Positions 134-32,200 of a stretch of 35,881 bases of DNA are shown here, piece after piece. Both the position numbers and the translations under genes were made by a program. The notes under the pieces were generated by a model. The model had not been told where the DNA came from, ran no database searches, and saw only the letters and a list, made by a program, of their open reading frames with translations. Position 1 is the first letter of the stretch; every line of letters begins with the position of its first letter. This DNA is from an uncultured bacterium (lineage in GTDB: Bacteria; Omnitrophota; Omnitrophia; Omnitrophales; Aquincolibacteriaceae), in NCBI GenBank assembly GCA_964349955.1, contig CAYGIT010000003.1, positions 1 through 35,881 of the forward strand, given 5' to 3'.

Positions 134-199
134 GTCATCTTGAGGAGCGCAGCGACAAAGGATCCATTCTTTGAGATGCTTCGCCACGCTCAGCATAAC
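134..199. repeat. Imperfect palindromic REP-like element, a diverged member of the GTCATCCTGAGCG...GAAGGATC family (family A)
   Basis: The left arm gtcatcttgaggagcgcagcgacaaaggatc (134-164) and right arm gatgcttcgccacgctcagcataac (175-199) are imperfect reverse complements. The element lies just 3' of the rarA stop. Confidence 0.5.
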
Positions 200-212
200 A
201 AAAGTGAAAGGG

Positions 213-1541
213 TTACTTCCGCGCCGCGCGCGATTGATTCAATTTCTCCGCCAACCGGCTTTCATATCCTGAATTTTTCGGCCGGTAATAATCTTTTCTT
301 TGCGGGAGAAAAGCCTGGGTATCCGGGCCCGGGAGATTATGAGAGTATTGATACCCTTCTCCGCGGCCCAGTTTTTTCGCCCCCTTGTAATGGGCGTCGC
401 GAAAGGCCGCGGGCACTTCCTGCGAAGTTTCATTTTTCACATCCGCAGTTGCTTCCGAAATAGCAATGGTGCTGGCATTGCTTTTTGGCGCGGTTGCCAT
501 ATACGTGACAAGCTGCGACAGGATCAACCGGGCTTCAGGCATTCCGACAAATTCAATCGCCTGCATTCCCGCCGCAGCCAGAATCAGGGCTTGCGGGTCC
601 GCATTCCCGATGTCCTCGCTGGCAAGAATTAAAATCCGGCGCATGATAAAACGCGGGTCTTCCCCGGCATACAACATTTTTGCGAGCCAATAAACGGCGG
701 CATCCGGGTCTGAACCGCGCATACACTTGATGAAAACACTGGCGGTATCATAATGATAATCTTCATCCGGATCATAATAGACAATCCGCTTTTGGCAGGA
801 TTCTTCCGCAGCTTTTTCATCCAGAAGAATCGTACCGCCGGAATCCGGAGGCGTGGTAAGGACCGCAATTTCAAGGGCATTGAGCGCCCGGCGCGCATCC
901 CCTGAAGCCGATTTGGCAATATGCGCGAGTGCCCGAAGCTCGGCCTTGACTTTCACTTTTCCGAATCCCCGTTCTTCGTCCTTCAAGGCCCGGTTTAAAA
1001 GGCCGGTCAAATCTTTTTCTTCCAGTGGATGCAATTCGAAAATCGTGGAGCGCGAAAGTAGCGGCCCGATAATCGCGAAAGAGGGATTGTGGGTGGTCGC
1101 GCCAATCAAAACAAGCCTGCCCGACTCCACATCCGGCATCAGAACATCCTGTTGCGCTTTGTTGAAGCGGTGGATTTCATCGATGAAAAGCGTAGTGCGT
1201 TTGCCGGTGGCTGCAAGACGCTTGGCATCTTCAATGACCTTGCGCAATTCAGCGACATTGGAAGTCACGGCATTGAGCGTTATAAAATGGGAGCAAGTGG
1301 CCAGTGAAATGACTTTGGCGAGTGTCGTTTTGCCGCTGCCGGGCGGCCCATACAAAAGGATGGAAGTCCAACGGTCGGATTCGATAGTACGGCGAAGCAA
1401 TTTCCCGGGCGCGAGCAGATGCTCCTGGCCTGCGATTTCGACCAGGGTGCAGGGCCGCATGCGCGCGGCTAGTGGAAGATTCGTTTGCTTTTCGGTTTTC
1501 GAAAAATCTGCCGGGTCTGAAAAAAGTTCGGGATTCGTCAC
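213..1541 (-). CDS. rarA: Replication-associated recombination protein A (RarA/MgsA AAA+ ATPase)
   Basis: The translation has the PLAARMRP...GQEHLL N-terminal motif, Walker A GPPGSGKTT, FIDEIHRFNK and a MgsA-type C-terminal domain. The track ORF starts at ATG 1613 but would overlap pheT by 71 nt. GTG at 1541 sits 1 nt after the pheT stop and gives a typical N-terminal length. Confidence 0.9.
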   Translation of the reverse strand: MTNPELFSDPADFSKTEKQTNLPLAARMRPCTLVEIAGQEHLLAPGKLLRRTIESDRWTSILLYGPPGSGKTTLAKVISLATCSHFITLNAVTSNVAELRKVIEDAKRLAATGKRTTLFIDEIHRFNKAQQDVLMPDVESGRLVLIGATTHNPSFAIIGPLLSRSTIFELHPLEEKDLTGLLNRALKDEERGFGKVKVKAELRALAHIAKSASGDARRALNALEIAVLTTPPDSGGTILLDEKAAEESCQKRIVYYDPDEDYHYDTASVFIKCMRGSDPDAAVYWLAKMLYAGEDPRFIMRRILILASEDIGNADPQALILAAAGMQAIEFVGMPEARLILSQLVTYMATAPKSNASTIAISEATADVKNETSQEVPAAFRDAHYKGAKKLGRGEGYQYSHNLPGPDTQAFLPQRKDYYRPKNSGYESRLAEKLNQSRAARK

Positions 1542-1542
1542 A

Positions 1543-3600
1543 TTATTGAAACGTGGCCTGAAACTGCCTGGCGAGGGAATCTGCGATTTCGGTGTGGAGC
1601 TTCTGGATTTCATCGGCCAGCAGGGTTTTTTCGCGTGATTGGTAAATCACGTGAAAGCCGATGTTTTTGCAGCCTTTGGGAATGCGCCCCCCCGTAAAAA
1701 GGTCAAAAAGCTCGACGCGCAAAATCAGGCCGCGGCCCAGTTTTAAAATCCGGTCCTGGAGAATTCCGGCTTTTGTGGATGCGGGGACCACCATGGCAAT
1801 GTCCCGGGAAATCGAAGGATATTTCGGCGGGTCGCGAAAGATCCGGCATCCTTTTTTTATCATCGCGGTAATCTTGGGAAGCGAGAGTTCCGCGTAATAG
1901 ACCCGCTCTTCAATCCCCCAGGCAGCTAAAATCCGGGCATCCAGCTCTCCGATGATTCCAAGCACGGCATTGCCCGAAGAAATTTTTTCGCTGCCCGGCC
2001 GGATTAAAAAGGAATATTCCCCAGGCTCGCACTCAAACGTTTCAACGCCCGAATGCTCCAGAAAGGCATTGACCGCTCCTTTTAAATCGTAAAAAGACGC
2101 ATCTCGCTCGGCATCCAGCCAGTTCTTTTGTTTCCATTTTCCAAACAACGCCAATCCCGCCGATTTTGTTTCTTCGGTGAGTTTATTGGAAAGCAAACGG
2201 TAGAGATTGGCGATTTCGAAAAAGGCCCCTCCTCGGGCGCCCTGGCGGATATTTTTCTGAATCACGCCCAGCAGGCTCGGATAAAACCGGGGGCGCATCA
2301 TTGTCAATTCCTGATTGCGCGGGTTGTCGACCTTCACCGCGTCCGCCGCATCGTCAGGTTCCGCTTGAGCCGGCGAAATCAGGCTAAAGGTGACCGTTTC
2401 AAAAAATCCGGCAGCACTGAAAAAATCACGGCCGGTTTCTTCAAGCTCAATCACGGGATTAGCCGAAGGGAGAAACGGCGCTTTGGCCGGCAGGGTTTCG
2501 GGAATCCGGTCGTAGCCGTAAATCCGGGCAATCTCCTCGACCAGGTCCACCGGATGGGCGATGTCCGGGCGAAAACCGGGAACGGAAACTTTCCAGCTTT
2601 CTTCCGAATCTTTTTTGACCTGCATTCCCAAGCGGGTCAAAATCGAAAATGCCTCATGCGGCTTGACCGGCGCTCCGAGTTTCTTCGTAATTTCAGCAAG
2701 GTTCAGATGCACGGTTTCACGCCCCGCCGCCGGTTTGTCCCCCGCTTTTAACACCGCGCTCACAAAACGGGGTTTGGCATATTGACGGATGAACGCAATC
2801 GCCCGTTCGCGGGCAAAATCCACGCCATCCGGATCCACCTTTCTTTCGAAACGATACGAGGAATCGCTCGAAAGTCCGAAGCGGCGCGAGGTTTTTCGCA
2901 CCCAGCGCGGATTAAAATAAGCCGATTCGAGAAAAATATTGCGCGTGGGTCCGCTGATTTCCGTATTTTTTCCGCCCATCACCCCGGCAAGGGCTGCAGC
3001 CTGACGCGCATCCGCAATCACAAGATCATCCGCCTCAAGCTTGAGCTCGCGCCCGTTGATCGCGATCAAGGCCTCCCCGGCCTTGGCACGCCGGATCCGG
3101 ACCTCGCGGCCCTCTAAAAGATCCGCATCAAAAGCATGCAAAGGCTGACCGGTTTCAAAAAGAACGTAATTGGTCACATCCACAAGAAAATTAACGGAAC
3201 GCACCCCGCAGGCTTCCAGGCGCGCTTTCATGAAATCGGGAGTAGGTACCGGATTCACGCCTTCTATATAGACGCCGGTATAATAAGGACAGCCCTCGTT
3301 TTCTTTCAGCTCCACTTTCCATCCGGGCGCGGCGGGGCGGTTGGCCACCTTGTCAATTTCAGGCATTTTCAGGGAGAGATTTTCCACAGCTGCGATTTCA
3401 CGGGCAATGCCGAGATGCGAAAGCCAGTCCGGGCGGTTGGAAGTCACTTCGACTTCGAAAAGAATGTCTTTTTCTTTTTGTGTGGAAATCGTTTCGATTT
3501 TTTTGACTTCGAGACCCGCCATGGTCAAATGGTCGGCAATCCGTTCAAGCGGAGGGGGCAAAGTGACAAAATCCTTCAGCCAGTTCGTGCTTACTTTCAT
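1543..3600 (-). CDS. pheT: Phenylalanine--tRNA ligase beta subunit (short form, no B2 OB-fold tRNA-binding domain)
   Basis: This 685-aa ORF has B3/4, B5 and C-terminal FDX-ACB-like regions recognisable by eye (NRPDWLSHLGIAREIAA, VTNYVLFETGQPLHAFD). It overlaps the pheS stop by 4 nt. Confidence 0.93.
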   Translation of the reverse strand: MKVSTNWLKDFVTLPPPLERIADHLTMAGLEVKKIETISTQKEKDILFEVEVTSNRPDWLSHLGIAREIAAVENLSLKMPEIDKVANRPAAPGWKVELKENEGCPYYTGVYIEGVNPVPTPDFMKARLEACGVRSVNFLVDVTNYVLFETGQPLHAFDADLLEGREVRIRRAKAGEALIAINGRELKLEADDLVIADARQAAALAGVMGGKNTEISGPTRNIFLESAYFNPRWVRKTSRRFGLSSDSSYRFERKVDPDGVDFARERAIAFIRQYAKPRFVSAVLKAGDKPAAGRETVHLNLAEITKKLGAPVKPHEAFSILTRLGMQVKKDSEESWKVSVPGFRPDIAHPVDLVEEIARIYGYDRIPETLPAKAPFLPSANPVIELEETGRDFFSAAGFFETVTFSLISPAQAEPDDAADAVKVDNPRNQELTMMRPRFYPSLLGVIQKNIRQGARGGAFFEIANLYRLLSNKLTEETKSAGLALFGKWKQKNWLDAERDASFYDLKGAVNAFLEHSGVETFECEPGEYSFLIRPGSEKISSGNAVLGIIGELDARILAAWGIEERVYYAELSLPKITAMIKKGCRIFRDPPKYPSISRDIAMVVPASTKAGILQDRILKLGRGLILRVELFDLFTGGRIPKGCKNIGFHVIYQSREKTLLADEIQKLHTEIADSLARQFQATFQ

Positions 3601-4575: not shown

Positions 4576-4620
4576 GATCCCCGATAAAAACATTCGGGGA
4601 TGACGTAAAAAGCACGTCAT
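4576..4620. repeat. Family B REP-like hairpin (GATCCCCGA-N9-TCGGGGATGAC) followed by a second hairpin TGACGT-N7-ACGTCA
   Basis: The stem tccccga/tcgggga spans 4578-4600. The stem tgacgt/acgtca spans 4601-4619 and overlaps the rplT stop. The pair fills the rplT-pheS spacer. Confidence 0.7.
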
Positions 4621-4970
4621 TTTTTCGTTCCGGCCAGCTCCACAAGTTTCTTGAAGGCCGCTTCATCGCGCACGGCAATATCGGCCAAAACTTTGCGGTC
4701 GAGCGAAATATTCGCATGCTTCAAACCCGCGATAAAACGGGAATAAGTGGTCCCGAACTTGCGGCAGGCGGCATTGATGCGGATGGTCCAGAGCCGGCGG
4801 AACTGGCGCTTGCGCTGTTTCCGGTCACGCGTGGCAAAAACCATGGCCCGCATGACGGTTTCATGCGCAGTGCGGAAAAGCTTGCGCCGGCCGCTAAAAA
4901 AACCTTTCGCGCGTTTGAGGACTTTTTTCCGTCTTTTTTTTGATGCGGGTGTATTGGTTGCTCTCGGCAT
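4617..4970 (-). CDS. rplT: 50S ribosomal protein L20
   Basis: This 117-aa ORF reads MPRATN...[21 protein letters not shown]...[10 protein letters not shown], a typical bL20 sequence. Confidence 0.96.
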
Positions 4971-4993: not shown

Positions 4994-5062
4994 GTCATTC
5001 CCGAATGATTTTGTCGGGAATCGTCAACTTGTTGATCCCCGACAGAAAATTTCGGGGATGAC
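4994..5062. repeat. Two tandem family B REP-like hairpins between rpmI and rplT
   Basis: The two hairpins are gtcattcccga-atgattttg-tcgggaatc (4994-5022) and gatccccga-cagaaaatt-tcggggatgac (5034-5062). The outer ends gtcat/atgac are also inverted. Confidence 0.75.
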
Positions 5063-5071
5063 TGGTATTAT

Positions 5072-5272
5072 TTAATGTCCGTAAGGCAAGAGCTTAAAAA
5101 CACGTTTGCGGTCCGTAGGATCCACATGACGGGCTTTCCGGCTCTGCCGTTTTTTCTTGGGGCTGCGGTCCGTCATCATATGACGGCGAAACGACCCCCG
5201 AGACAGTACTTTTTTGTTTTTAGTGATCCTGAAGCGTTTTCTAGCTGCTTTGTTCGTTTTGATTTTTGGCAT
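5072..5272 (-). CDS. rpmI: 50S ribosomal protein L35
   Basis: This 66-aa basic ORF reads MPKIKTNKAARKRFRITKNKK, a typical bL35 sequence. Confidence 0.95.
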   Translation of the reverse strand: MPKIKTNKAARKRFRITKNKKVLSRGSFRRHMMTDRSPKKKRQSRKARHVDPTDRKRVFKLLPYGH

Positions 5273-5876: not shown

Positions 5877-5902
5877 TGAACCTCCTTATGGTTAAAAATT
5901 CG

Positions 5903-7897: not shown

Positions 7898-8110
7898 TCA
7901 TTTCACCAAAATATGCTTTCCTTCCCACTCTACGCGGCTCCCCGCCCGGACTTTAAAGGCTTTTCGCATTTCAGGGGCTCCATTGACTTTGACCTGCCCC
8001 TCGGAAATGGCGTATTTGGCAGCTCCCCCGCTTTCGCAAAGGCCGGTCACTTTGAGGAGTTTAAAGAGCTCGATGAATTCCTCTTTTAAAGAAAAGGCCA
8101 TTTCGCTCAT
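7898..8110 (-). CDS. ybcJ: S4-domain RNA-binding protein, YbcJ-like
   Basis: This 70-aa ORF reads ELFKLLKVTGLCESGGAAKYAISEGQVKVNG...RKAFKVRAG. It aligns by eye along its whole length with E. coli YbcJ and has a 4-nt overlap with the upstream ABC-F gene. Confidence 0.8.
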   Translation of the reverse strand: MSEMAFSLKEEFIELFKLLKVTGLCESGGAAKYAISEGQVKVNGAPEMRKAFKVRAGSRVEWEGKHILVK

Positions 8111-9723
8111 GCGTAGAGCGCCAGCCTCTTGCTCTTTTGTTCGTCGCTGGCCAGGTATTCGTCAAAGGTGGTATCCCGCGCGTCAATCATGCCGCGGGGT
8201 GTAAGTTCAATAATACGGTTGGCAACGGTCTGCACAAATTGATGATCATGGGAAGAAAAGAGAACCGTCCCTTCAAAGATTTCCAGGCCTTTGTTCAGCG
8301 CCGTGATGGATTCCAGATCCAGATGGTTGGTGGGCTCATCCAGAATCAAAACATTGGCCCCGACGAGCATCATGCGCGAAAGCATGCAGCGCACGCGCTC
8401 TCCTCCGGAAAGGACTCTTGATTTTTTCAATGATTCTTCGCCGGAAAAAAGCATTCTCCCCAAAAATCCACGGATAAAATTCTCATCCGTCTCTTTCGAA
8501 AACTGGCGCAGCCAATCCAGCAAATTCAGGTCGTTCTCGAAATATTTCCGGTTTTCTTTCGGGAAATAAGCCCGTGAAGTGGAAACGCCCCATTTGAAGG
8601 TGCCGCTGTCGGGCATAAGCTCTCCCATCAGCACCTGGAACAATGCGGTTTTGACCCGGTCATTGGACCCGACAAAAGCAATTTTATCCCCTTTGTTGAC
8701 GCGTAAATTTAATTTTCGAAAGAGAGTTTCTCCGTCAAGTGACATGCTCAAGTCTTCGGTCTGAAGCAAATCATTGCCCGATTCGCGTTCGGATTTAAAA
8801 ACGATATGCGGATAACGGCGCGAGGAAGGCTTGATGTCTTCAAGGGTTAATTTTTCTAAAAGTTTTTTACGCGAAGTGGCCTGCCGTGATTTCGAGGCAT
8901 TAGCGCTGAAACGGGCGATGAAAGCCTGAAGCTCTTTGCGCTTTTCATCGATCTTTTTATTGGATTCCGAGCGCTGGCGAAGGGCGAGCTGGCTGGATTC
9001 GTACCAAAAACTGTAATTGCCGGTATAAAGCTGGATCTTCCCGAAATCAATGTCGGCGACATGCGTGCAAACGCGGTCCAAAAAATGGCGGTCATGCGAA
9101 ACCACGATCGCCGTGTTTTTGAAATCATATAAAAAATCCTCGAGCCACATGCAGGTTTCCAGGTCCAATTGATTGGTGGGTTCATCCAGAAGCAGGATAT
9201 CCGGATTTCCGAACAGGGCCTGAGCAAGAAGCACCCGGACTTTCTGGCTGGCTTCAAGCTGTTTCATGAAAGCCTGGTGGAAATTTTCCTGGATTCCAAG
9301 GTCGCTCAAGAGTTTGGCCGCCTCGGCTTCGGCATTCCAGCCATTCATTTCCGCAAATTCATTTTCAAGCTCGGAAGCGCGGATCCCGTCGGCATCTGAA
9401 AAATCCGGCTTCGCATAAATGGCGTCTTTTTCCCGGATGATCTGGTAGAGCTTTTGATGCCCCATCATGACGGTCGTCAGCACCGTGAGCTCATCGTAGG
9501 CAAACTGGTCCTGCTTCAGCACCGAAATACGCGCGTTTCTCCCAATGCTTACTTCTCCCGCATTGGAATCAATTTCTCCGGAAAGGATTTTCAGAAAAGT
9601 GGATTTGCCCGAACCGTTCGCCCCGATCAGCCCATAGCAATTCCCGGGCGTGAACATGATGCTCACGTTTTCAAATAAAACCCGTTTTCCGTACTGGAGT
9701 GTGACACCGCTTGTGGAAATCAT
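8107..9723 (-). CDS. ybiT: ABC-F family ATPase (YbiT-like, two ABC cassettes, no transmembrane domain)
   Basis: This 538-aa ORF has two Walker A sites (GANGSGKST, GSNDRVKTA), two LSGG signatures, the linker FSANASKSRQATSRKK, and a length and layout like YbiT. Confidence 0.88.
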   Translation of the reverse strand: MISTSGVTLQYGKRVLFENVSIMFTPGNCYGLIGANGSGKSTFLKILSGEIDSNAGEVSIGRNARISVLKQDQFAYDELTVLTTVMMGHQKLYQIIREKDAIYAKPDFSDADGIRASELENEFAEMNGWNAEAEAAKLLSDLGIQENFHQAFMKQLEASQKVRVLLAQALFGNPDILLLDEPTNQLDLETCMWLEDFLYDFKNTAIVVSHDRHFLDRVCTHVADIDFGKIQLYTGNYSFWYESSQLALRQRSESNKKIDEKRKELQAFIARFSANASKSRQATSRKKLLEKLTLEDIKPSSRRYPHIVFKSERESGNDLLQTEDLSMSLDGETLFRKLNLRVNKGDKIAFVGSNDRVKTALFQVLMGELMPDSGTFKWGVSTSRAYFPKENRKYFENDLNLLDWLRQFSKETDENFIRGFLGRMLFSGEESLKKSRVLSGGERVRCMLSRMMLVGANVLILDEPTNHLDLESITALNKGLEIFEGTVLFSSHDHQFVQTVANRIIELTPRGMIDARDTTFDEYLASDEQKSKRLALYA

Positions 9724-9760: not shown

Positions 9761-9777
9761 AATTTTCTGGACTGCGC

Positions 9778-10261
9778 GCCGGCAAGGAGGGAAGCTTCTC
9801 CTGCGGCACCGCCCGATTCTCGGTTCGGCTTTTCGGGTCCTGTCCGGCGGGTTCCCCAGGGTGAGTCAAAAACTTTTTTCCCTGATGCAAGCCCTTAGAG
9901 TGAGAATCCCGAAGGGAAGTCTCGCCATGGGGCTCAAACGGCCTTTTGAAGTCCGGCATCCGTGGAAGGGGAAAAAAGTTTTTGCCTCACCCCGGGGATG
10001 CCCCTCCGCCGGCCACCCGAAAACTCGACTCGATCCTCCGAAAACAGTCAGAGAAAAAACTGTCTTTGCCTCTGACCCGTTTTCTTTGTTCAAGCCCTTG
10101 GGCCGAGGCCGGCAAGGAGGGAAGCTTCTCCGGAGGCAGCTCGTGAGGCGTGTTTTCTATGGAATCGAAAACACGCACGAACGCGCAGAGAGGAGCATAC
10201 AACCCGATATCAGATTTATGCTCCGAACGGTGCCGCAGGAGAAGCTTCCCTCCTTGTCGGC
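9778..10261. repeat. Composite repeat island with 34-nt terminal inverted repeats, an internal direct copy and nested 24-26-nt inverted repeats
   Basis: The segment gccggcaaggagggaagcttctcctgcggcaccg at 9778-9811 matches the reverse complement of 10228-10261 with 1 mismatch. A 24-nt direct copy lies at 10108-10131. The segment gggtgagtcaaaaacttttttccc at 9859-9882 matches the reverse complement of 9968-9993, with a related copy at 10049-10077. Extra stems lie at 10150-10176 and 10191-10224. Confidence 0.8.
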
Positions 10262-10292
10262 ACGGGCACGACCCGTAGTTATGAATGGAGAG

Positions 10293-10323
10293 AAAGGCCG
10301 GACTTTTTCAGAGCCCGGCCTTT
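10293..10323 (-). terminator. Possible hairpin terminator after the DUF378 gene
   Basis: The stem aaaggccgg (10293-10301) pairs with ccggccttt (10315-10323) around a 13-nt loop. There is no clean U-tract beyond the stem. Confidence 0.35.
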
Positions 10324-10329
10324 AGAGGC

Positions 10330-10548
10330 TTAATTTTTCTTGCAGCAACACGGGCATGACTTGACGATCGAGATCAACAGGATCAATCCCGACACTGCTA
10401 CCAGCCCGTAAACGGCTTTGGCCGGAAGGGTCATATCGCCCAAAATCCTGGTCACTAAATTCACCTGAAGAAACGCGACAAGCCCCCAATTCAGGGCCCC
10501 AATACCGGCAAGCAGCGTCACCAATTTGCAAACAGGACATTTTCCCAT
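10330..10548 (-). CDS. DUF378-family small membrane protein with Cys-rich termini
   Basis: This 72-aa ORF has the core IGALNWGLVAF...NLV typical of DUF378, two predicted TM helices, an N-terminal CPVC and a C-terminal CPCCC. AAGGAGG lies upstream of the ATG. Confidence 0.75.
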   Translation of the reverse strand: MGKCPVCKLVTLLAGIGALNWGLVAFLQVNLVTRILGDMTLPAKAVYGLVAVSGLILLISIVKSCPCCCKKN

Positions 10549-10668
10549 GGTTGAGCCTCCTTGTGTATGGAATTTTACCTTTTATGATTATCGGCAATCT
10601 CATGCCAAGCCTGACAAAAATCTTTGAAACCTGACTCCAAATCAGCACAAAAATGCCGATAAAGGAAT

Positions 10669-11448
10669 ATGCCATTTTTAACTTCATTAGGCGTGTTGTT
10701 ATTCATTGCCCTGATTGCCCGGTCCGTCTGGATTCCGGCTTCCGGGCGGGAGAAAATCACCGGGGCTCTTTTCTTTGCCTTGTATTGCGATATCGCGTTG
10801 ACTCTTTACTTGTGGATTCGCGCACCGAAAGAAATTCTAGTCATCGGTTACGTTCTTTTCGGCGCCGGAGCTTTCTGGTTTACGGCCGAAACCCTGGGGT
10901 ATTTCCTTAAAAAAACCAATTTCTTGCCGGAAAATTTAAATCTCCTGAAAAAATACCGCAAAGGAGCCTATCAGGAAATCATGCTTGCCTGCCAGCAGCT
11001 TGCGGAAGCAAAACAAGGCGCATTGATGATTCTCGAGCGCAAACAGCCGTTAAGCGCCTGGTGCCAAAAAGGAATTTGTCTCGACGCCATCATTTCCAAA
11101 GAATTGATCTATTCAATTTTCACTCCACCGGGCGCGCCGCATGACGGCGCCGTTATTTTTCAAAAAGAGCGGATCGCCGCCTGTGCCGTGATCGTTCCCC
11201 TCACTTCCAACAGCCGGCTGCCCAAGGAACTCGGCACCCGTCATCGCGCGGCCGTGGGATTCAGCGAAATCACCGATAGCATATGCGTCGTCGTTTCCGA
11301 AGAAACCGGCAGCATTTCCATCGCCGACCGGGGAGTCCTGAATTACAATATTCCTTTTGCCCAATTGCCCGAGGCTTTGGAAAGGGCGCTTCGCTTCAAA
11401 CGCCAAAAGAGAAAAACAGCTTCTCCCGCATTCGCCAACTCCCTCTGA
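10669..11448 (+). CDS. cdaA: Diadenylate cyclase CdaA (membrane-anchored DAC domain)
   Basis: This 259-aa ORF has N-terminal hydrophobic helices followed by DAC motifs: HDGAVIF, GTRHRAAVG and VVVSEETGSISIA. Confidence 0.9.
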   Translation: MPFLTSLGVLLFIALIARSVWIPASGREKITGALFFALYCDIALTLYLWIRAPKEILVIGYVLFGAGAFWFTAETLGYFLKKTNFLPENLNLLKKYRKGAYQEIMLACQQLAEAKQGALMILERKQPLSAWCQKGICLDAIISKELIYSIFTPPGAPHDGAVIFQKERIAACAVIVPLTSNSRLPKELGTRHRAAVGFSEITDSICVVVSEETGSISIADRGVLNYNIPFAQLPEALERALRFKRQKRKTASPAFANSL

Positions 11449-18366: not shown

Positions 18367-18385
18367 AAATGAATACCCCAAAAAT

Positions 18386-18410
18386 GGATCCCCGCTTTCG
18401 CGGGGATGAC
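18386..18410. repeat. Family B REP-like hairpin (GGATCCCCGC-TTTC-GCGGGGATGAC)
   Basis: The stem tccccgc/gcgggga lies in the sbp-cysT spacer. Confidence 0.7.
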
Positions 18411-18417
18411 ACGGGAG

Positions 18418-20006: not shown

Positions 20007-20078
20007 GTCATCCCCGAATGTCTTAATCGGGGATCCATTTAAAAACAGAACATGGATTCCCGCTTTCGCGGGAATGAC
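20007..20078. repeat. Two family B REP-like hairpins in tandem
   Basis: The two hairpins are gtcatccccga-atgtcttaa-tcggggatcc (20007-20036) and ggattcccgc-tttc-gcgggaatgac (20054-20078). Confidence 0.75.
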
Positions 20079-20108
20079 ATTGAACTAGTTTGGACAGACC
20101 ATTAAATG

Positions 20109-20321: not shown

Positions 20322-20374
20322 TTGAAATCACCTCCTGTAAAGAGAGTATCGAAATTTCAGCGGGAAACTTGAGT

Positions 20375-20419
20375 AAAAACAGGGGACAGGCAGCGAATTA
20401 TTGCCTGTCCCCTGTTTTT
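20375..20419. terminator. Bidirectional intrinsic terminator built on the family C stem AGGGGACAGGCA
   Basis: The sequence is aaaaacaggggacaggca-gcgaattat-tgcctgtcccctgttttt, a 15-bp perfect stem flanked by A5 and T5. It overlaps the stop of the upstream GATase1-like gene. Confidence 0.8.
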
Positions 20420-21149
20420 ACCTGGCTTTGACCAGCCAACGGATCATCGAAGACAGAAATCGCACGTAAGCATCGCCAACTTCAATGCGGATGTCTTTGG
20501 TGACCGGGAGTCGAAGCGTCTTGCTTCCCCAATCCACCATTCCGCCGCACCAGTGAGGCGCAACATCGGTGGCCAGTACGGCTGTCCGGGTTTGCGGATC
20601 GGCATTCACAACCAAAAGAGGAATCTCCTTTTTCTCGAGGCTGATTTTTCGTTCGTGAACAATCCGGCGCACCGCAAGAACCACTTTTGCATTAGGGCGA
20701 GGGACCACTTCATTGAGGCCGCAGATCACAGGCAAATCACGAATGGAAAAATTTCCAAGAATAGCATGCCGGGCTTTGAGGACAATCGCGCCCCCGCCCG
20801 GTAAATTGACGCGGTCATCCTGCCCAAGGCATTGGACCGGCAGTAGTTTTTCGACAAGGCTTCCCTTCCATCCTCCAAAAGGTCCCGAAAAAGAACCCCA
20901 GCCCCCGATCATGGCAAAGCCCATTCCGTTTTCAACCGCCGCATTGAGGCGGATTTGCACTTTGCGGGAGCATTGTTTTACGGAGTAATCACTGAATAAA
21001 ATAGCATCAAATTTTTTTTCGAATGAAAGCGGACGAAGCGGTTTTGAAGGCGGAACATGGGTTGTTTTTGCGCCGAGAAATTTCAATACTCCGAGCAAAT
21101 AATTGGCCGGCCCGCCGACCGGACTGTCGCCCGCGTAAAGAATTCTCAC
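20418..21149 (-). CDS. GATase1-like (class I glutamine amidotransferase-like fold, DUF1355-type) protein
   Basis: The sequence reads VRILYAGDSP...AILFSDYS...GFAMIGGWGSFSG...LLPV...DVAPHWCGG. GTG 21149 forms a GTGA overlap with the DUF971 stop. The track start is 21191. Confidence 0.55.
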   Translation of the reverse strand: MRILYAGDSPVGGPANYLLGVLKFLGAKTTHVPPSKPLRPLSFEKKFDAILFSDYSVKQCSRKVQIRLNAAVENGMGFAMIGGWGSFSGPFGGWKGSLVEKLLPVQCLGQDDRVNLPGGGAIVLKARHAILGNFSIRDLPVICGLNEVVPRPNAKVVLAVRRIVHERKISLEKKEIPLLVVNADPQTRTAVLATDVAPHWCGGMVDWGSKTLRLPVTKDIRIEVGDAYVRFLSSMIRWLVKAR

Positions 21150-21786: not shown

Positions 21787-21977
21787 TAATTTTGAAAGTG
21801 TTGTTTAGTTATTTATCCGGCCAAACCCCTTCCAAAGCCCATGACCTCGGCATGAAGCCAAGACGCGCAACGCGCCTTCGCCATGCGATGCATGGTGGGT
21901 ACAAATGCTTTGGGTTGAATACAATACAAGAGATTCATCGGATTCATACTTATTACTGTAACATGCTTGTCAATAGT

Positions 21978-22050
21978 GTCATCCTGAGCGAAGCGAAGGA
22001 TCTCTAAGCGGAACCTGTAGATCCTTCGGCAAAAAACGCCTCAGGATGAC
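21978..22050. repeat. Family A palindromic element (GTCATCCTGAGCGAAGCGAAGGATCT...AGATCCTTCGG...CTCAGGATGAC)
   Basis: The outer arms gtcatcctgag/ctcaggatgac and inner arms gaaggatct/agatccttc are nested. The element lies immediately 3' of the amidase stop. Confidence 0.8.
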
Positions 22051-22056
22051 AGATTC

Positions 22057-22836
22057 TTATTCAGCAATACGGCGCTTGAATTCAGACCAGGGGAATTTGA
22101 GGCCGGGGCATTCAGTATTCTTGCCCATCACATCCCCGTGCCGAATCACATTTTGACCGCGGATCCCGTAATATTTTTGCAGGGTTTTCACAAGCGTGAC
22201 AAGACTCTCCAGTTCGGCCTGGGTCATGCGGCTTTCGCTAAAATTACCGACAATGACAACCCCGATCCCCCGCTGATTCATGCCATCGGCATTCGCATGC
22301 GCGCCGTCCAACTGTTTGATCCAGCGCGGCCCCACCTGAATCTGGCCGTCTTCTTTTCCGTTCGTTCCGTTGTTGATGAGAAAATGATAACCAAGCCCGT
22401 TCCAGAATCCGCGTTTATGATGAAGCTCATCGATCATGAAGGCATCTCCTTCATGCGTGGCCGTGTGATGAATCACAATATGCGTCCAGCGCATCGTTGG
22501 GTAAAGAGGGATCACCGAGCGCGGCCCCGTGGTTTTCGGAATCAAAAGCTTCTGACCGTTTGAAATTTTAGTAGGATCGCTCAAATGATTGGCCCGCAAC
22601 AGCGTATTCATATCAACATTGTAGGTTTTGCTGATACGCCAGAGAGTTTCCGAAGGCCCGACAACATGCACGAGATTGTGAGGACGATCATAGCCGGCCG
22701 CGCCTGTCGCCGTGACAACTCCGGTGCCCATCGCGCCTGGCCTGCCCGGGGCCGGGGCATGGGAACAACCGGCCGCCAAAAGCAATAGTAAGAGCGCACA
22801 AAATTTTATTTCAATCCGAAATTTTTCAGATTTCAT
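22057..22836 (-). CDS. LysM-domain N-acetylmuramoyl-L-alanine amidase lipoprotein (amidase_2/PGRP type)
   Basis: This 259-aa ORF has the lipobox LLLAAGC and a LysM domain (HVVGPSETLWRISKTYNVDMNTLLRANHL). It also has an amidase_2 core (IVIHHTAT...GYHFLI...GAHA...N..GIGV...GNF...H.D...T.CPG). Confidence 0.85.
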   Translation of the reverse strand: MKSEKFRIEIKFCALLLLLLAAGCSHAPAPGRPGAMGTGVVTATGAAGYDRPHNLVHVVGPSETLWRISKTYNVDMNTLLRANHLSDPTKISNGQKLLIPKTTGPRSVIPLYPTMRWTHIVIHHTATHEGDAFMIDELHHKRGFWNGLGYHFLINNGTNGKEDGQIQVGPRWIKQLDGAHANADGMNQRGIGVVIVGNFSESRMTQAELESLVTLVKTLQKYYGIRGQNVIRHGDVMGKNTECPGLKFPWSEFKRRIAE

Positions 22837-22840
22837 GTTT

Positions 22841-25657
22841 TTATTTTTTCAAAGCCTCGGAAACCGATGCCTGCAAGGTCCGGAGTCCTGCCAGAGGATC
22901 TTTTCCCAAATCAATGGCAAGAAATGGAAGGCCTTTGTCTTCCAGGGCCAGCATATCCCCGAGCGCCTGGGCTTTTTTGAGCTGGCCGAAAGTATAGGGC
23001 TCTCCCGGAATTTTGACATCCTTTTTCTCACGGATCAAGAGCTCAAGAAAAAGGCCGGATCGCGTGCCTCCTTTATAAAGTTGGCCGATCGAATGCAAAT
23101 AACGCGGCCCAAAACCCACAAGAACGGGAACGCCGAGGCGGGCTGCAATCGTTTCGCGTATTTTATCCAAAGCTTTTTGAGTCGCAGCGGAACGTTCCAG
23201 ATAAGCCAGAAGCGCAACATAGCCGCCTTTGGGGATTTTTCTGAAAATACCCTGAAGGGCTTCGGAGGATTTTGCGGAAATCATGCCTTTCGGATCCTCA
23301 AGTTTCTCTTTTTTCTTCAGGTCTTCGAGAATCCGGCCGGTATTGTCTTTGCTTTCTTTCACATTCGGTTCATCAAACGGATTGACTCCAAGTACCGCAC
23401 TTGCAACCGCGGTCGCAATTTCCCAGCGTAAAAATTCTGCGCCGATGGAAGAAGCGGAGGGCCATTGGATCTCGACGACGGGAAACCCCGCTTTTTTTAC
23501 TGCTTTCACGGATTTTGACAAGGCCCCGGATTTTTCGCCTTTGAAACTCAAAGCCAGAAAATACCGGTCCTTCGCATAGGCTGAAATTTGCAGAGGTTTT
23601 TCTCCCTCCACAGGAATGACTCCCTTGCCTTCCTTGCCTGTGCTTTCGGCGACAAGCTGTTCGAGCCAGGTGCCAAAAGACGCCAGCCGCGGCGAAGTCC
23701 AAACCGTCATTTTGTCTTTCCCATTCCGCGCCAACTCCCCCATTAAAATTCCAAGGGAAACCGCGGAATTTTTCTGCAAATCCGCTTCCTGAGCCTGGTT
23801 GAACATATTTCGCGCGGCGAAAAGAATATCCCGGATATCGATGCCAATCAAAGCCGCAGGAACCATCCCAAAAAGAGAAAGCGCCGAATAGCGGCCGCCG
23901 ATATCGGAGGGATTCAAAAAGATTTTCCGGAACTTCTTTTCGCGGGCAAGTTTTTCAAGATTAGAACCCGGATCGGTGATTGCAATAAAGTGTTTTCCCG
24001 TATCTGTCCCCTTTTTCGGTGTCTGACACCTCTGGAAAAAATAGCGGAACTGGGAAAGGGTCTCGACCGTGCCTCCGGATTTGCTGGCCACGATAAAAAG
24101 AGCGGATTTCAGCGGAACTTTCATTTCTAGATTCAAAAGGCTGGCGGGATCGGTCGTATCCACGACATGAAGCTTCGGAAAACCGGGAAGCCGTTCGCAA
24201 ATCAATCCCATGACTTCCGGCGCAAGGCTGGAACCGCCCATACCCAGGAGAACGACATTTTTTACTTTTTCCGAGCGGATTTCTTTTTGCAGAGCATCGA
24301 TGCTGTAAAGTTTTCCAAGCACCCAATCGTGGGCAGTCAGCCAGCCCAACCGGTTCAAAATGACTTTTTGATGTTCTGCATCGCTTTTCCACAAAGTAGG
24401 GTCTTTTTTGAATAATCGAGGGACAAAATCTTTGGGAATCTTGTTATCCTGAGCCCTTCCTTGGTCATCCTGAGCGCAGCGAAGGATCTCCGAGGACAGC
24501 TTTTCGCTCAGAGATTCTTCGGCCTGGGGCCTCAGAATGACATTCTTCCGCGAATCACGTTTCAGCTCGAGCGTTTTCATCAGCGAATCAAAAGACTGGA
24601 TAAACGACTTCACACCCTCTTTTTGAAGGATCTCCCCTTGCTCGATTAAATCGATGCCGCGTTTTTTTAAATCCGTGATTACGCGCTGCGATTCATCGAG
24701 ATCTTCTTCAATACTGTTGGGCCGAACCACGGCGTGATCCAGCACGGCCTCCAGCGTATTTTGCGGCAGCGTATTGACCGTATCTTTTCCCACAAGCGTT
24801 TCCACGTAAATCAAATCGGGATACGCAGGATTTTTGGTGCTGGTGCTGCCCCAAAGCGGCCGTTGCACCCGCGCGCCGGAAGCTTTCAACACATGAAAAT
24901 CCTCCGATGAAAACATGCGTTTGAATTCCTGATAAATCAAACGGGAATTGGCAATCGCGGCTTTTCCTTTAAGATTTCCGGCATCCGGCATGGCTTCCAG
25001 TTTTTTGTCCACGAGCGAATCGATCCGGCTCACAAACACGCTGGCCACGGAATGCACCCGGCTCAAATCTCCGCCTTTTTTCTTGTAGAGTTTCAATCCC
25101 GACAAATAAGCATTGGCAACATCCCGGTAATGCTGAATCGAAAACATCAGCGTGACATTGACATTAATGCCTTCCGCGATCACCGCTTTGATGGCAGGAA
25201 TCCCTTCAGGCGTCGCAGGAATCTTGATCATCACATTCGGCCGGTTCACCAGAGCAAAAAGGCGGCGAGCCTCCGCAATCGTGCCATTCGTATCGTAAGA
25301 CAGGTCGGGGCTGACTTCCAGGCTTACAAAGCCGTGCTCGCCCCCGCTTTTCTTATAGACAGGAAGGAACAAATCGCAGGCCGCCTGGATATCTGAAACC
25401 GTCAAGGCATCGTAAATTTCGAAAATAGACCTGTTCTTCCGGAGCATTTTGAAAATGTCCCGGTCATACTCTTTGGAGGAACCGATCGCTTTTTCAAAAA
25501 TCGTGGGGTTCGAGGTGACTCCCATCAAGCCCTTCTCTTCAATCAGCGTCTTCAAACTTCCCGATTCAATCAGCGCGCGGCTGATATTGTCGAGCCAGGG
25601 ACTTTGGCCCGCCTGAAGAAGTTCCAATGTCGGTAATTTTTGAGTCATAGAATTCAT
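22841..25657 (-). CDS. Bifunctional transaldolase / glucose-6-phosphate isomerase fusion
   Basis: This 938-aa ORF has an N-terminal transaldolase domain (QSPWLDNISR, GVTSNPTIFEKA, VSLEVSP, IKIPAT). After a linker it has a PGI domain (GMGGSSLAPEV, ASKSGGTVET, GGRYSALS). Confidence 0.88.
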   Translation of the reverse strand: MNSMTQKLPTLELLQAGQSPWLDNISRALIESGSLKTLIEEKGLMGVTSNPTIFEKAIGSSKEYDRDIFKMLRKNRSIFEIYDALTVSDIQAACDLFLPVYKKSGGEHGFVSLEVSPDLSYDTNGTIAEARRLFALVNRPNVMIKIPATPEGIPAIKAVIAEGINVNVTLMFSIQHYRDVANAYLSGLKLYKKKGGDLSRVHSVASVFVSRIDSLVDKKLEAMPDAGNLKGKAAIANSRLIYQEFKRMFSSEDFHVLKASGARVQRPLWGSTSTKNPAYPDLIYVETLVGKDTVNTLPQNTLEAVLDHAVVRPNSIEEDLDESQRVITDLKKRGIDLIEQGEILQKEGVKSFIQSFDSLMKTLELKRDSRKNVILRPQAEESLSEKLSSEILRCAQDDQGRAQDNKIPKDFVPRLFKKDPTLWKSDAEHQKVILNRLGWLTAHDWVLGKLYSIDALQKEIRSEKVKNVVLLGMGGSSLAPEVMGLICERLPGFPKLHVVDTTDPASLLNLEMKVPLKSALFIVASKSGGTVETLSQFRYFFQRCQTPKKGTDTGKHFIAITDPGSNLEKLAREKKFRKIFLNPSDIGGRYSALSLFGMVPAALIGIDIRDILFAARNMFNQAQEADLQKNSAVSLGILMGELARNGKDKMTVWTSPRLASFGTWLEQLVAESTGKEGKGVIPVEGEKPLQISAYAKDRYFLALSFKGEKSGALSKSVKAVKKAGFPVVEIQWPSASSIGAEFLRWEIATAVASAVLGVNPFDEPNVKESKDNTGRILEDLKKKEKLEDPKGMISAKSSEALQGIFRKIPKGGYVALLAYLERSAATQKALDKIRETIAARLGVPVLVGFGPRYLHSIGQLYKGGTRSGLFLELLIREKKDVKIPGEPYTFGQLKKAQALGDMLALEDKGLPFLAIDLGKDPLAGLRTLQASVSEALKK
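24443..24541. repeat. Family A palindromic element located inside the tal-pgi reading frame (99 nt = 33 codons)
   Basis: The element comprises gttatcctgagc (24443-24454), ggtcatcctgagcgcagcgaaggatctc (24463-24490) and the inverted arm gagattcttcggcctggggcctcagaatgac (24511-24541). On the minus strand it is translated as NVILRPQAEESLSEKLSSEILRCAQDDQGRAQDNK. Confidence 0.8.
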
Positions 25658-25681: not shown

Positions 25682-25722
25682 ATTTAGGGGACAGGCATGA
25701 AGTACATGCCTGTCCCCTAAAT
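25682..25722. repeat. Family C hairpin (TTTAGGGGACAGGCATG-N7-CATGCCTGTCCCCTAAA) between glgP and tal-pgi
   Basis: This 17-bp perfect stem shares the core aggggacaggca/tgcctgtcccct with the terminator at 20375-20419. It has no U-tract. Confidence 0.75.
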
Positions 25723-29043: not shown

Positions 29044-29073
29044 GTCATTCCCGAAATCCTTGTTCGGGAATCC
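29044..29073. repeat. Family B REP-like hairpin (GTCATTCCCGA-N8-TCGGGAATCC)
   Basis: The stem attcccga/tcgggaat lies in the divergent spacer between the TA pair and the giant ORF. Confidence 0.7.
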
Positions 29074-29275: not shown

Positions 29276-32200
29276 ATGGCTTCTAAGTTAGTTTCTCTTT
29301 TTCTGGCGATTGCGATGATCATGGAACCCATGGTTCCGCTTTATGCTTGTCCTCCCGGTTTCACATGCATTGGGTCAGGTGCCGGGGAACTTGTAAATGC
29401 ACCCATAGGAACGACAACAACTACGACTACTGACGGTAACGGCACTACAACTACAACCACGACAACTACCTCGACCTCATCGCTGCCGCCTTCAATTTCG
29501 GCTACCAACCCACTATCGTCACCGTCACCTTTACCGACACCGAGTGCAACCAGCGCTCCTTCATCTTCACCGAGCCCTGGTACAACGACAAACTCTTTTC
29601 CAGCTAATTTTACAATTATTTACAATGGAACAAATTCTGACTACCCGGACCTGCGGCAAAGATTTTCTACTGCTCTCGGTTTTGATTCATCAACGAGAGT
29701 AGCGATCATGCTCAATACGACAGAACCCATGGTACACAATGCGCTCTATTTTGAAATCCATGATCTGAATAATCCGTCAGGCCCCATTCAAAACCGGGGC
29801 ATGATATCCATTTTATCCAATGCGGCGGCAATGCTCACACTGCCTTTCTCCGCCTTCCCTTATTATTTTATGCCGACATTAATTATAGAACCGCGGACAT
29901 GGGGCCTGGTGGCCGAATACCTTCCACCGAGCATTGTTAAATCGGCGCCGACAACACCTCCATCAACACCCACACCGGCTTCAACGCCATCGACAACCGG
30001 CCCAACACCGGAACCCGTCGAATCGGTCGTTCAGTACTTTTCTCCGGTCGCATTTTCCATCGCAGCCACTCCGGAAACCCCGGAACCAAGCGCGACACCA
30101 GCAATTGATCCGACACCGACACCATCAACTGAGCCCTCGACTACGCCAACAACTGACCCGTCAACGACACCTTCAACGGAGCCGTCAACGACACCTTCGA
30201 CTGAGCCGTCAACGACACCTTCAACGGAACCATCAACTACACCGTCGGAAAGTCCCGCTGAATCACCGGCGCCTTCACCTTCATCATCAACGGTGCCAGA
30301 TCCGTTGCCCTCGCCATCGGATGACGAGTCGCCTTCACCGGAGGATGAGGAGGAACCCACTGATTCTCCAACGCCACCAACGCAAAGCGCTGAAATTGTG
30401 TTGAATGCCTGGATTCCCCAGGAAATGACCAATTTTTTCCAATCTAATGAACTTGCCGTTGTGCGCGCTATCGCCAATCAACCTTTAAACTCCCTTAGCC
30501 TTAACTGCCAACCCGATTGCGGTTTGGCTTTTAGAAACACAACCACAAACAACTTTTTTTCCGCATTCGTTGCTCTTTCCGATCAAGACAGCATCGACCT
30601 CACGACGGCAGAGTTCGTTGGTTCTACGGCGCGTATGAGCAGCGGAATCGTTTTAACTGCGGGGACATCCGATCCGGTTACTATTAAAACATTAACCATT
30701 GACCGCGATGACAACGGCCAGATTACTGCAATCCATTTTCTGGACGAAGACGAAATAAGCAAACTGACCCTTCGCTATCCCCAGGAAGTCCTGTCAACGG
30801 CTCAAGTCGACCCGATGTCTTCCGATAACTCGATTTATATTTTTAATTCCGTCCCCAATTTTAATCCCGGAGATTTAAAATTTCTAACTTCCCAAACAAA
30901 CACCGAAACTCCCGGGCCCGTGAAAATCACACTCGAAAATGGTGAGATTCCCGGTTCCGCAGAAACTCAATGGATCTCTTTTTACACGGCGAATGAAGAT
31001 CAATACAGGATCCTGATTCCCAATGGTCCGCCAGGAACGCTGACTCAAGATGTGGCCCTTTCCAGCGCACAAATGGGAATGATGCAAATGGAAACGAATG
31101 AATTCGATCCCATCACAGGTTCTTCACTTTCATTAGGCCCTGCCCCCTTAGACACATTACGGATTGTCCGTGACGCAACGGGCAATATCGTTTCCATCTC
31201 TTTTAAGTCTAATGGCTATTCTCTTTTAAAAGTCACCGTTCTTCCCGTAACGGCTCCGGAAGTGAATGAGAACGACAACATTTCAGATATTTCCTTTGCT
31301 TCTATTGAAAACCAGGACGAAGTTTCGGAAGAAGACTGGAATGAGTTTGGAATCGTGGAAAGCGACGAAAATCCTTTCTCCGAAGAACCTTCTCTCGACG
31401 ATCCTGATCTTGAATCAATTCCAGATGCAGCAAAAGCTCAAATGCAAAGCGTCCTGAATTCATTGAGCTTTGTCCTTCAGGTCGCGATCGTTACGGGGCA
31501 AGTGGATCAAGGCACATTTGGAATGAGACAGTCCGTAAATCAGATCATAGAATCAAATAATTTGCTCAACTATCCCCAATTCCGGAATGCCTATCAATCT
31601 ATCATGCAAAGGATCTTGCGGTTTTCAAATAGCGCGAGATATGTGGAAAACCTGCCTGATCCCGCAATGAATCTCCCCGAAGACCTTCCGGAATCCTACC
31701 GGCAACTTTTGACGGATTTCATGTCTGCTAATGAGCCAGGCAACCCGGATTTGGGGCCATCCGAGAATTTCCTATCGGCCATCCAGGAGGAACAGGGCCG
31801 CATTGCCCAACTTGCCACAGACCGGGACGCGCTTTTTGTCCGGGCATTGACCGATCCCGCGGCTCTGGATCAATGGAACAATCAGCCCGTTTCAATCGCA
31901 GGAAGAAATTATTCCTCTCACGCAATGGCCTATCTTGCGGAAATAGCCCGGTCTCAAAGGCGCATCAGTTTTCTTAAACAGGCTTTTCGCCGGGTGATTG
32001 CCCCGCGTATGGCTGCGGCAATAACCGCTGTCCAGAACGACCGGCTGGCAGCCCCTCAATCCGCGACCGGTTCACAAGATTTCCGCGAAGGATTTCTCCG
32101 GGAGATCAATTATTACGCCACCAATCTTGGCATAGGCACCGAGGCTGCCATGCGGGCCAACCTGGATGCGCTTCGCCTTCAAGCGACCAACGCGATACGA

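Follow-up and report, generated by a model that had tools for sequence, protein, structure and literature searches.

A hairpin repeat read in frame probably stands in for a structured connector in a transaldolase–glucose-6-phosphate isomerase fusion enzyme

Introduction

The 35,881 nucleotides analyzed here (the window; positions 1 to 35,881 of contig CAYGIT010000003.1, from an uncultured bacterium of the Omnitrophota) carry a gene for a bifunctional enzyme, transaldolase / glucose-6-phosphate isomerase (Tal-PGI), and inside that gene, at 24443-24541, lies a palindromic repeat of a family (family A) that has further copies in the window. An original prediction, made from the sequence alone, saw in it a repetitive extragenic palindrome (REP) or something like a miniature transposable element with inverted repeats (MITE), which had either been tolerated as extra linker between the two domains or had helped to fuse two adjacent genes. 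We suggest, with a probability of roughly 0.8, that it is a non-autonomous hairpin doublet of the type associated with the nuclease Ssn, together with a half-unit, and that it replaces a structured connector in a gene that had long been a fusion, with a net gain of about 8 residues.

Results

The Tal-PGI protein matches the Pfam families TAL_FSA at residues 21-362 (3.4e-84) and then PGI at residues 463-676. All of the invariant columns (140-odd) of a 51-sequence alignment, A1, are kept in the query, and its AlphaFold2 model, built on a 51-sequence alignment, has a mean predicted local distance difference test score (pLDDT) of 91; going by its sequence, we infer that the protein is still functional.

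The element fills exactly 33 in-phase codons (99 nt), from codon 373 (V, GTC at 24541-24539) to codon 405 (N, AAC at 24445-24443), and its translation, V373-N405, is VILRPQAEESLSEKLSSEILRCAQDDQGRAQDN. Of the three coding-strand frames through the element, two contain stops, and the gene uses the open one. Because the element is in frame and stop-free within the Tal-PGI open reading frame (ORF), it is predicted to contribute repeat-encoded protein sequence, so that the earlier claim of a repeat turned into protein is borne out as a prediction. It consists of two inverted hairpin units, a spacer and, outside unit 2, a half-unit that amounts to a partial extra arm (Table 1). Unit 1 is the 'GAGG-GGCC stem-CCGAAG' variant of family A, a type that also flanks genes for GIY-YIG nucleases elsewhere (e.g., GTCATTCTGAGGCGCCAGCCGAAGAATC at locus L144). 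Unit 2 matches the 26-nt family pattern exactly, agrees with the intergenic copy at 21978 in 26 of 27 nt, and is translated as EILRCAQDD (codons 390-398), while the half-unit is translated as QGRAQDN (codons 399-405). With up to three mismatches allowed, the 26-nt pattern is matched twice in the window, at 21978 and at 24464, and never in 100 shuffles, and the element is thus a genuine palindromic REP-like repeat, as had been proposed. The intergenic copies named alongside it were likewise confirmed, 21978-22050 being a clean doublet and 134-199 a degenerate one. On the coding strand AAT directly precedes the first bases of the element, GTCATT (24542/24541), and no target-site duplication was found at 24442/24542 or, for the intergenic copy, at 21977/22051.

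The site was compared with 119 other Tal-PGI proteins among the matches listed, which are 50-59% identical to the query and 919-993 aa long; those that are named come mostly from Omnitrophota. All 119 have both domains (PF00923 and PF00342) and none contains element-encoded words, from which it follows that the fusion predates the element. The distance between the invariant anchors E364 and W423 is 58 aa in the query versus 47-55 (median 50) in these homologues, a net gain of 3-11 aa (median 8) and not of 33. In the alignment, 42 residues separate the landmarks 'LExKR' and 'DF..RF', compared with about 35 in orthologues, the flanks are colinear, and the connector residues of the query that do not belong to the element number 9 (DSRKN and KIPK). 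As the net gain is about 8 aa and not 33, some 25 ancestral codons would be missing. The view of the element as inserted extra linker fares poorly in this orthologue alignment, for homologues free of the repeat carry an inter-anchor segment of nearly equal length, the difference being about 8 aa.

Structure models, computed with AlphaFold2 for the query and for one orthologue, P0002, each with a 51-sequence alignment, bear on what the segment was. In the P0002 model a confident beta-strand and 16-residue helix link the last transaldolase helix to the PGI half, and the element peptide of the modelled query, itself folded as strand, helix and loop, is placed where P0002 has this strand-helix module (Table 1). 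The element does lie between the two domains, as originally described, but in the one orthologue modelled this place is taken by a structured module and not by free or loose linker.

Family A is not peculiar to this genome. In a scan of one genome per species, the exact 25-mer GTCATCCTGAGCG[AC]AGCGAAGGATC was present in at least 120 loci from at least 12 phyla; its hosts among the matches listed include Acidobacteriota, Chloroflexota, Omnitrophota, Gemmatimonadota, Bacteroidota (with the cultured Hymenobacter, Pedobacter and Mucilaginibacter), Bacillota, Verrucomicrobiota, Planctomycetota, Nitrospirota, Patescibacteria, Bdellovibrionota and Pseudomonadota. Such identity is unusual conservation for a selfish repeat; it implies that either the repeat has co-evolved tightly with a conserved nuclease or transfer between phyla has been frequent. 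The usual layout is a unit, a variable spacer and an inverted unit. The 128 unique doublets collected from other loci are 61-139 nt long, with spacers that vary widely, and are flanked by Y-T before the opening GTCAT and by A-R after the closing ATGAC. Position -1 is T in 84% and position +1 is A in 87%. GTC is preceded by T in 107 doublets and by C in 14, which gives the TGTC/CGTC tag. Target-site duplication is absent in 123 of the 128, at odds with the description of the element as MITE-like.

Each unit follows one grammar, namely (Y)T-GTC, an AT-first stem, the loop GAGCGNAGCGA, a closing stem ending in AT, and then C. The stem is a perfect 5 bp that encloses this 11-nt loop and is followed by a CTC/CYC tail; all units read GTC-AT...AT-C, so that the first pairs are A-T and T-A. 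The loop of the A variant (GAGCGAAGCGA, in the intergenic copy at 21978) contains GCGAAGC, which we take to be the classic hyper-stable DNA mini-hairpin, and this variant may be read otherwise, as a GAA triloop on a stem of 9 pairs with two G.A mismatches. When units were located by tag and loop only, the stem triplets proved complementary in 74 of 78, in 8 stem variants (shuffles: mean 18.8, maximum 30), indicating that the hairpin is maintained by compensatory change. In other genomes tandem half-units, TGTCATYCTGAGC plus 7-9 nt, stand ahead of 22 of 214 full units (about 10%), on their outer side and with a period of 19-24 (mode 21); such arrays occur at L020, L036, L039, L106, L162 and L165, among others, and 24443-24463 in the window is of the same kind. 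L121 and L146 have ...CTGAGCCCTTC... in common, a stretch shared by three independent loci, and CCTTCG within it is the complement of the 3' half of the unit. These half-units support the outer boundary first given to the element.

The family is associated with a small gene, its units in other genomes bracketing genes for single-domain GIY-YIG nucleases of 95-105 aa. At locus L049 a unit, a 96-aa GIY-YIG gene and an inverted unit follow one another, L115 and L068 have related layouts, and in all a unit abuts such a gene at 6 of 120 motif-selected loci, the other three (L034, L070 and L104) having been found by profile search of genome loci. The ORFs concerned are of 96-106 aa and have PF01541 as their single domain (E about 1e-14 to 1e-16). 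The reverse test used 80 metagenome loci picked solely by homology to these GIY-YIG proteins. Within -160/+200 nt of the gene there are 87 tagged hairpins, or 3.1 per kb, versus 27 in 277 kb (0.097 per kb) at more than 400 nt from it, a 32-fold enrichment, and the typical locus has a + unit upstream and a - unit downstream. At L049 (3250-3800, - strand) the unit-gene-unit arrangement is bordered in turn by an additional inverted repeat, CCAAACACCCCCCT on one side and AGGGGGGTGTTTGG on the other, as if placed central to another palindrome. At L068 (4600-5560, - strand; Pedobacter sp. AK013) the GIY-YIG gene lies inside an array of nearly identical modules repeated in tandem, each of about 140 nt and made up of a unit, a spacer of about 70 nt and an inverted unit, which resembles the clustered NTS arrays of Neisseria and Wolbachia.

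Copies read in frame recur in other genomes. Among about 386 tagged hairpins in 200 loci, with Pfam support required of the host gene, we found three further in-frame intragenic copies (about 1%), in line with the 2% of Neisseria. In the LepA of L094 the doublet, read as CHPERSEGSRPQSQLGSSVGSPPQND, adds 23 residues (aa 69-91) relative to Aquifex LepA (PDB 2ywe) and sits in a hairpin loop before the DTPGH motif, a clean loop insertion. The unit at L041 lies mid-protein, at about aa 232, inside the MFS_1 match (aa 58-415), and that at L074 lies upstream of the GTGD motif of the kinase. Most long ORFs over units in high-GC loci were set aside as spurious, either for want of a Pfam domain (L019, L065, L088, L090, L101 and others) or with the unit upstream of the first domain (L063, L096, L108 and L188). 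A search of an index of 5.8 billion proteins with a 40-aa element peptide gave nothing usable, no candidate having three common words. The length is a multiple of three in 32% of 130 doublets, and 31% of strand-frames are stop-free; together these proportions mean that about 10% of random hits on coding DNA would be compatible in length and frame.

Two published repeat systems are close to this one. CGTC-tagged REPs (Di Nocera, De Gregorio, Rocco 2013, BMC Genomics 14:522; PMC3733652) are described in the text of that article as having a CGTC tag that is TGTC in many copies, a stem of 8-9 bp starting with AT, a 4-5 nt loop and a CCA tail, as being mostly dimers, and as occurring in five phyla. 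There CGTC-1 is equated with Neisseria dRS3, and the R. conorii elements RPE-6 and RPE-4 with the CGTC-1 and CGTC-4 families; REPs within ORFs are recorded, CGTC REPs are said to be apparently without a transposase of their own, and no REP-associated tyrosine transposase (RAYT) was found flanked by CGTC units. Family A shares with them the one-sided tag, the A-T/T-A first pairs, the inverted dimers, the spread over several phyla and some intra-ORF copies, and differs in its 5-bp stem, 11-nt loop and CTC tail, reaching 8-9 bp only when G.A pairs are included; the text of PMC3733652 does not describe it. A second family in the window, family B (GTCATYCCCG...CGGGRATCCA), is equivalent to the CGTC-1 / Neisseria-dRS3/NTS-type repeats. 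Its units (TGTCATTCCCGCGAAAGCGGGAATCCA) fit CGTC-1 fully, with an 8-bp stem, a 4-nt loop and a CCA tail, the hairpin being ATTCCCGC/GAAA/GCGGGAAT + CCA.

The second system is that of Chenal et al. 2025 (Nat Commun 16:2388; PMC11893778), in which NTS, an oriented dRS3 variant (CGTCATTCCCGCGMAVGCGGGAATCYRG), and its relatives elsewhere, the Ssn-related motifs (SRM), are hairpins with an HGTCWY head that flank ssnA, a gene for a 94-aa single-domain GIY-YIG protein of family cd10448. At least one SRM lies near 71% of ssnA homologues, and 42% have one on both sides. Both binding of the hairpin and cleavage by Ssn (members from Neisseria and Wolbachia) are specific to single-stranded DNA, and the cut falls a few nt upstream of the tag. 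The NTS-ssnA-NTS layout is insertion-sequence-like, there are hundreds of solo copies, 2% of NTS are intragenic in N. meningitidis, and in Neisseria an NTS flanking a gene lowers the transformation frequency of that gene (PMC11893778). Family A, too, flanks small single-domain GIY-YIG genes, often as repeat-gene-repeat, which is a property of the family and not of the window. Unlike the published loci, the window holds no Ssn-like gene, and translated in-frame copies are not discussed in PMC11893778. The SRM pattern, used as HGTCWYN(0-2)YYVSBRHN(0-5)WNVSBRGN(0-2)RNCYNB (PMC11893778), matches two family-B units in the window (18384-18411 and 20052-20079; mean of Markov simulations, 0.14 per window). 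The enrichment beside GIY-YIG genes is an independent re-discovery of the published association, which it extends to family A, and family A, as far as sequence can tell, is best called a TGTC-tagged SRM variant missed by the published pattern.

Other systems are less close. The Rickettsia palindromic elements (RPEs; Ogata et al. 2000, as summarized in the text of PMC10969869 and PMC3733652) are in-frame palindromic inserts in conserved genes that are read through, and the Tal-PGI copy is similarly in frame and stop-free within a conserved gene. RPEs are, by contrast, about 100-150 bp long, confined to Rickettsia and very frequently intragenic, whereas here about 1% of units are verified as intragenic and the host is Omnitrophota-like; an RPE adds a surface loop, whereas the Tal-PGI copy probably replaces a structured segment. 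With the REP doublets mobilized by RAYTs (REPIN-RAYT; Bertels and Rainey 2011; PMC3116915) family A shares two inverted hairpins with a spacer, non-autonomy, lack of target-site duplication and, presumably, a single-copy nuclease or transposase partner and recognition as single-stranded DNA, the difference being a GTAG tag and HUH tyrosine transposase there and a TGTC tag and GIY-YIG nuclease here. Intragenic ERIC/RU (Delihas 2007; PMC2759123) are also small palindromic intergenic repeats that occasionally lie in ORFs and give peptide, and differ in belonging to unrelated sequence families, in their length of 100-170 bp and in being confined to enterobacteria (PMC2759123). A search of the literature on these repeats for the 20-mer and the encoded peptides found neither, and the family-B 17-mer matched only an unrelated paper on the Neisseria gonorrhoeae pilus.

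Within the window, inverted doublets lie at 134-199, 4994-5062, 20007-20079, 21978-22050 and 24464-24541. The RNA fold of the 21978-22050 doublet has an energy of -37.1 kcal/mol (z = -5.8). Several family-B units occupy short spacers within operons, as beside the gene for ribosomal protein L20, and the ORF between units there (4617..4970, - strand), considered as a nuclease, was rejected on finding that it is L20 itself. Rfam gave nothing at the gathering threshold for the window and 12 related loci, and nothing with E <= 1 on 21900-24700.

Three further features were seen in passing. A third palindrome family, (GTAAAAAC)AGGGGACAGGCA-N9-11-TGCCTGTCCCCT, occurs at 20373-20421 and 25686-25718, one copy falling between the stop of the glucan phosphorylase gene (25734) and the start of Tal-PGI (25657), which are separated by 76 nt; the family has the look of shared terminator-type hairpins. 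At 9765-10275, about 500 nt of non-coding DNA between the ORFs 8107..9723 (- strand) and 10322..10687 (- strand) hold nested long inverted repeats, with outer arms of 37 nt (95% complementary, 416 nt apart), inner arms of 30 nt and a third, directly oriented copy of the outer arm. The RNA fold has z-scores of -11 (+ strand) and -13 (- strand), Rfam assigned this segment no family (two chance miRNA hits were far below threshold), and the segment may represent a nested hairpin element or else a structured RNA not yet described. Finally, at 30095-30238, at least five tandem 24-nt (8-codon) Thr/Pro-rich repeats (ACACC..CAAC.GA.CC.TC.AC.) lie either just upstream of a very large gene, of at least 1819 aa and running off the end of the window (gene calls of L201), or at its start.

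Table 1. Coordinates of the Tal-PGI gene, the element and its parts, the modelled connectors, and repeat copies in the window and at other loci.
Sequence	Feature	Position	Strand	Description
Window	Tal-PGI gene	22841..25657	-	bifunctional transaldolase / glucose-6-phosphate isomerase; 938 aa, intact (ORF list)
Window	Hairpin unit 1, 5' coding-strand arm	24511..24541	-	31 nt, GTCATTCTGAGGCCCCAGGCCGAAGAATCTC; codons 373-383
Window	Spacer between the two arms	24491..24510	-	20 nt, TGAGCGAAAAGCTGTCCTCG
Window	Hairpin unit 2, inverted arm	24464..24490	+	27 nt, GTCATCCTGAGCGCAGCGAAGGATCTC; coding strand GAGATCCTTCGCTGCGCTCAGGATGAC
Window	Half-unit outside unit 2	24443..24463	+	21 nt, GTTATCCTGAGCCCTTCCTTG; coding strand CAAGGAAGGGCTCAGGATAAC
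P0002 protein	Connector (AlphaFold2)	383-387; 390-405		strand (QAFQI); 16-residue helix; pLDDT 95-97
Query protein	Connector (AlphaFold2)	378-382; 385-396		strand (QAEES); helix (EKLSSEILRCAQ); pLDDT 71-77
Query protein	Loop (AlphaFold2)	397-410		pLDDT 58; <50 at 398-403
Window	Family-A intergenic doublet	21978..22050		73 nt; 7 nt downstream of LysM/amidase stop (22057..22836, -)
Window	Degenerate family-A doublet	134..199		GTCATCTTGAGGAGCGCAGCGACAAAGGATCC ... GATGCTTCGCCACGCTCAGCATAAC; just 3' of ORF 213..1613 (-)
Window	Family-B unit, canonical SRM/CGTC-1 type	18384..18411	-	TGTCATCCCCGCGAAAGCGGGGATCCAT; occupies spacer between two co-directional genes
Window	Family-B doublet	20007..20079		GTCATCCCCGAATGTCTTAATCGGGGATC (+) and TGTCATTCCCGCGAAAGCGGGAATCCAT (-)
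Window	Family-B units (n=3)	4576-4604; 4994-5022; 5034-5062	-; +; -	spacers either side of L20 gene
Window	Family-B solo unit	29044..29072	+	GTCATTCCCGAAATCCTTGTTCGGGAATC; intergenic (gene map of L201)
L094, Ca. Magasanikbacteria SICD01000036.1	LepA/EF4 GTPase domain gene	3-1349	-	in-frame family-A doublet, 77 nt
L041, Acidobacteriota	Major facilitator superfamily (MFS) transporter gene	2527-3945	-	solo family-B unit read ASFPRKWES
L074, Lachnospiraceae	PfkB/Phos_pyr_kin-type kinase gene	4947-5993	-	family-A unit read GILRFAQDD

Discussion

We suggest that the Tal-PGI element is a non-autonomous copy of the CGTC/TGTC-tagged REP superfamily (NTS / "Ssn-related motifs") that probably arrived long after the two enzymes had fused. 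It may have come by an Ssn- or hairpin-dependent single-strand process like that of REP/RAYT or IS200/IS605, or as filler copied in during the repair of a break, and about 75 nt of original sequence would have been lost, whether at the same time or through a subsequent deletion. That the copy persisted is attributed to a length that is a multiple of three and to its having landed in the only stop-free frame. V373-N405 is predicted to be translated, and the net gain of about 8 residues is modelled as a low-confidence loop. Evidently, the connector can be replaced.

Several observations weigh against this account. A profile search in six frames found no GIY-YIG gene in the 36-kb window, and the GIY-YIG proteins linked to family A matched no NCBIfam family and have a single, weak PDB match (1zg2, UPF0213 BH0048; E = 0.002). 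The SRM pattern matches none of the four family-A units of the window, nor the half-unit, and the RNA fold of the intragenic hairpin (z = -1.66) is only marginally better than shuffles. The alignment behind the query model forced the element peptide onto orthologue columns, so its strand and helix may be inherited from them. Among the homologues listed there is no closer Tal-PGI relative than about 59% identity; with the nearest at only about 58%, the form that the connector had in the ancestor is inferred rather than observed, and the ancestor may already have had a shortened one.

A stronger version, in which a single break-repair or template-switch event overwrote the roughly 75 nt and the QAEES strand and EKLSSEILRCAQ helix now do the connector's job, we regard as doubtful. 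If it were true, an Ssn-associated selfish hairpin would have been exapted as a folded protein module, with a hint of spread by replacement, and family A would be an unrecognised, exceptionally conserved class of SRM with its own Ssn clade.

It is unlikely that 99 nt were simply inserted into a flexible interdomain linker to add 33 residues. The element is complete and in phase, in the LepA of L094 a copy of the family does form a clean insertion of about 23 aa in a loop, and the alignment consensus makes the connector the least conserved part of the protein. Against this stand the small excess in inter-anchor length over the 119 listed homologues, the mere 9 non-element residues between 'LELKR' and 'DF' where orthologues have about 35, and the confident strand-helix of P0002, which is not a loose connector.

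Still less probable is that the copy has been exapted for a function of its own, as a pause site where the two domains meet, as an Ssn cleavage site that limits uptake of this gene in transformation, or as a peptide connector. Both arms are still canonical, AlphaFold threads the element peptide as strand and helix, and in Neisseria gene-flanking NTS do lower transformation (PMC11893778). Yet with a single sequence there is no evidence of conservation, the RNA fold is weak, and a search of the intragenic copy for terminator or promoter signals found none above background; with about 10% of random coding hits compatible, chance survival suffices.

Mobilization by a RAYT (an IS200/IS605-like tyrosine transposase), as for a GTAG-type REP or REPIN, seems very unlikely, even though the mechanism may well be analogous: the short tagged hairpin, the inverted dimers, the absence of target-site duplication and the copies just downstream of genes are all as expected of such elements (PMC3116915, PMC3733652). 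The tag, however, is TGTC/CGTC and not GTAG, and the gene bracketed by units is a GIY-YIG gene, and Di Nocera 2013 found no RAYT flanked by CGTC units. The exact unit is also common to at least 12 phyla, whereas a preprint (bioRxiv 10.1101/2022.05.22.493013) has REPIN-RAYT inherited mostly vertically within lineages.

There is scarcely any case for a classical MITE, a deletion derivative of an insertion sequence with a DDE transposase that moves by cut and paste. Terminal inverted repeats, small size and many mostly intergenic copies would suit it, but the doublets mostly lack target-site duplication, their Y-T and A-R flanks extend the palindrome, the only gene found repeatedly between arms is the GIY-YIG nuclease of about 95 aa, and compensatory changes keep each arm a hairpin in its own right.

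As for an assembly artefact, a chimeric or collapsed join at the repeated 27-mer, this is a metagenome assembly and the repeat occurs elsewhere on the contig. We consider it highly improbable nonetheless, given that the two flanks belong together as colinear halves of one gene, read in a single frame, that the contig name implies k = 141, far above the 27-nt repeat, and that comparable in-frame copies occur in unrelated assemblies. The ENA contig k141_760454 agrees with the window without mismatch over 22,808 nt, the element included. The look-up listed two contigs with the Tal-PGI protein, possibly from one assembly.

That the element fused separate tal and pgi genes by removing stop and start signals, an idea favored only by its position at the domain boundary, is hardly credible, for all 119 listed homologues, from Omnitrophota and other lineages, are fusions without the element, and the colinear 58% identity of the residues on either side of it makes an independent fusion in this lineage very unlikely.

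In-frame copies of CGTC-type REPs and RPEs and the Ssn-SRM system are both already described; what is genuinely new here is the probable replacement of a structured connector, a pan-phylum family-A variant outside the published SRM pattern, and the half-unit arrays. As the variant (…CCTGAGCGMAGCGAAGG…) occurs in at least 12 phyla and escapes that pattern, SRM censuses may undercount. For annotation, the words VILSEAKDL, EILR(F/C)AQDD, HPERSEGS and SFASLRMT should be taken as marks of translated repeats, and not as protein homology. The Tal-PGI copy extends the Rickettsia phenomenon of "selfish DNA inside proteins" to an Omnitrophota-like bacterium and to a fusion enzyme of central metabolism, and ties it to the recently described Ssn/SRM nuclease-repeat systems, and the recurrence of in-frame copies in LepA, an MFS transporter and a kinase carries it to unrelated conserved genes.

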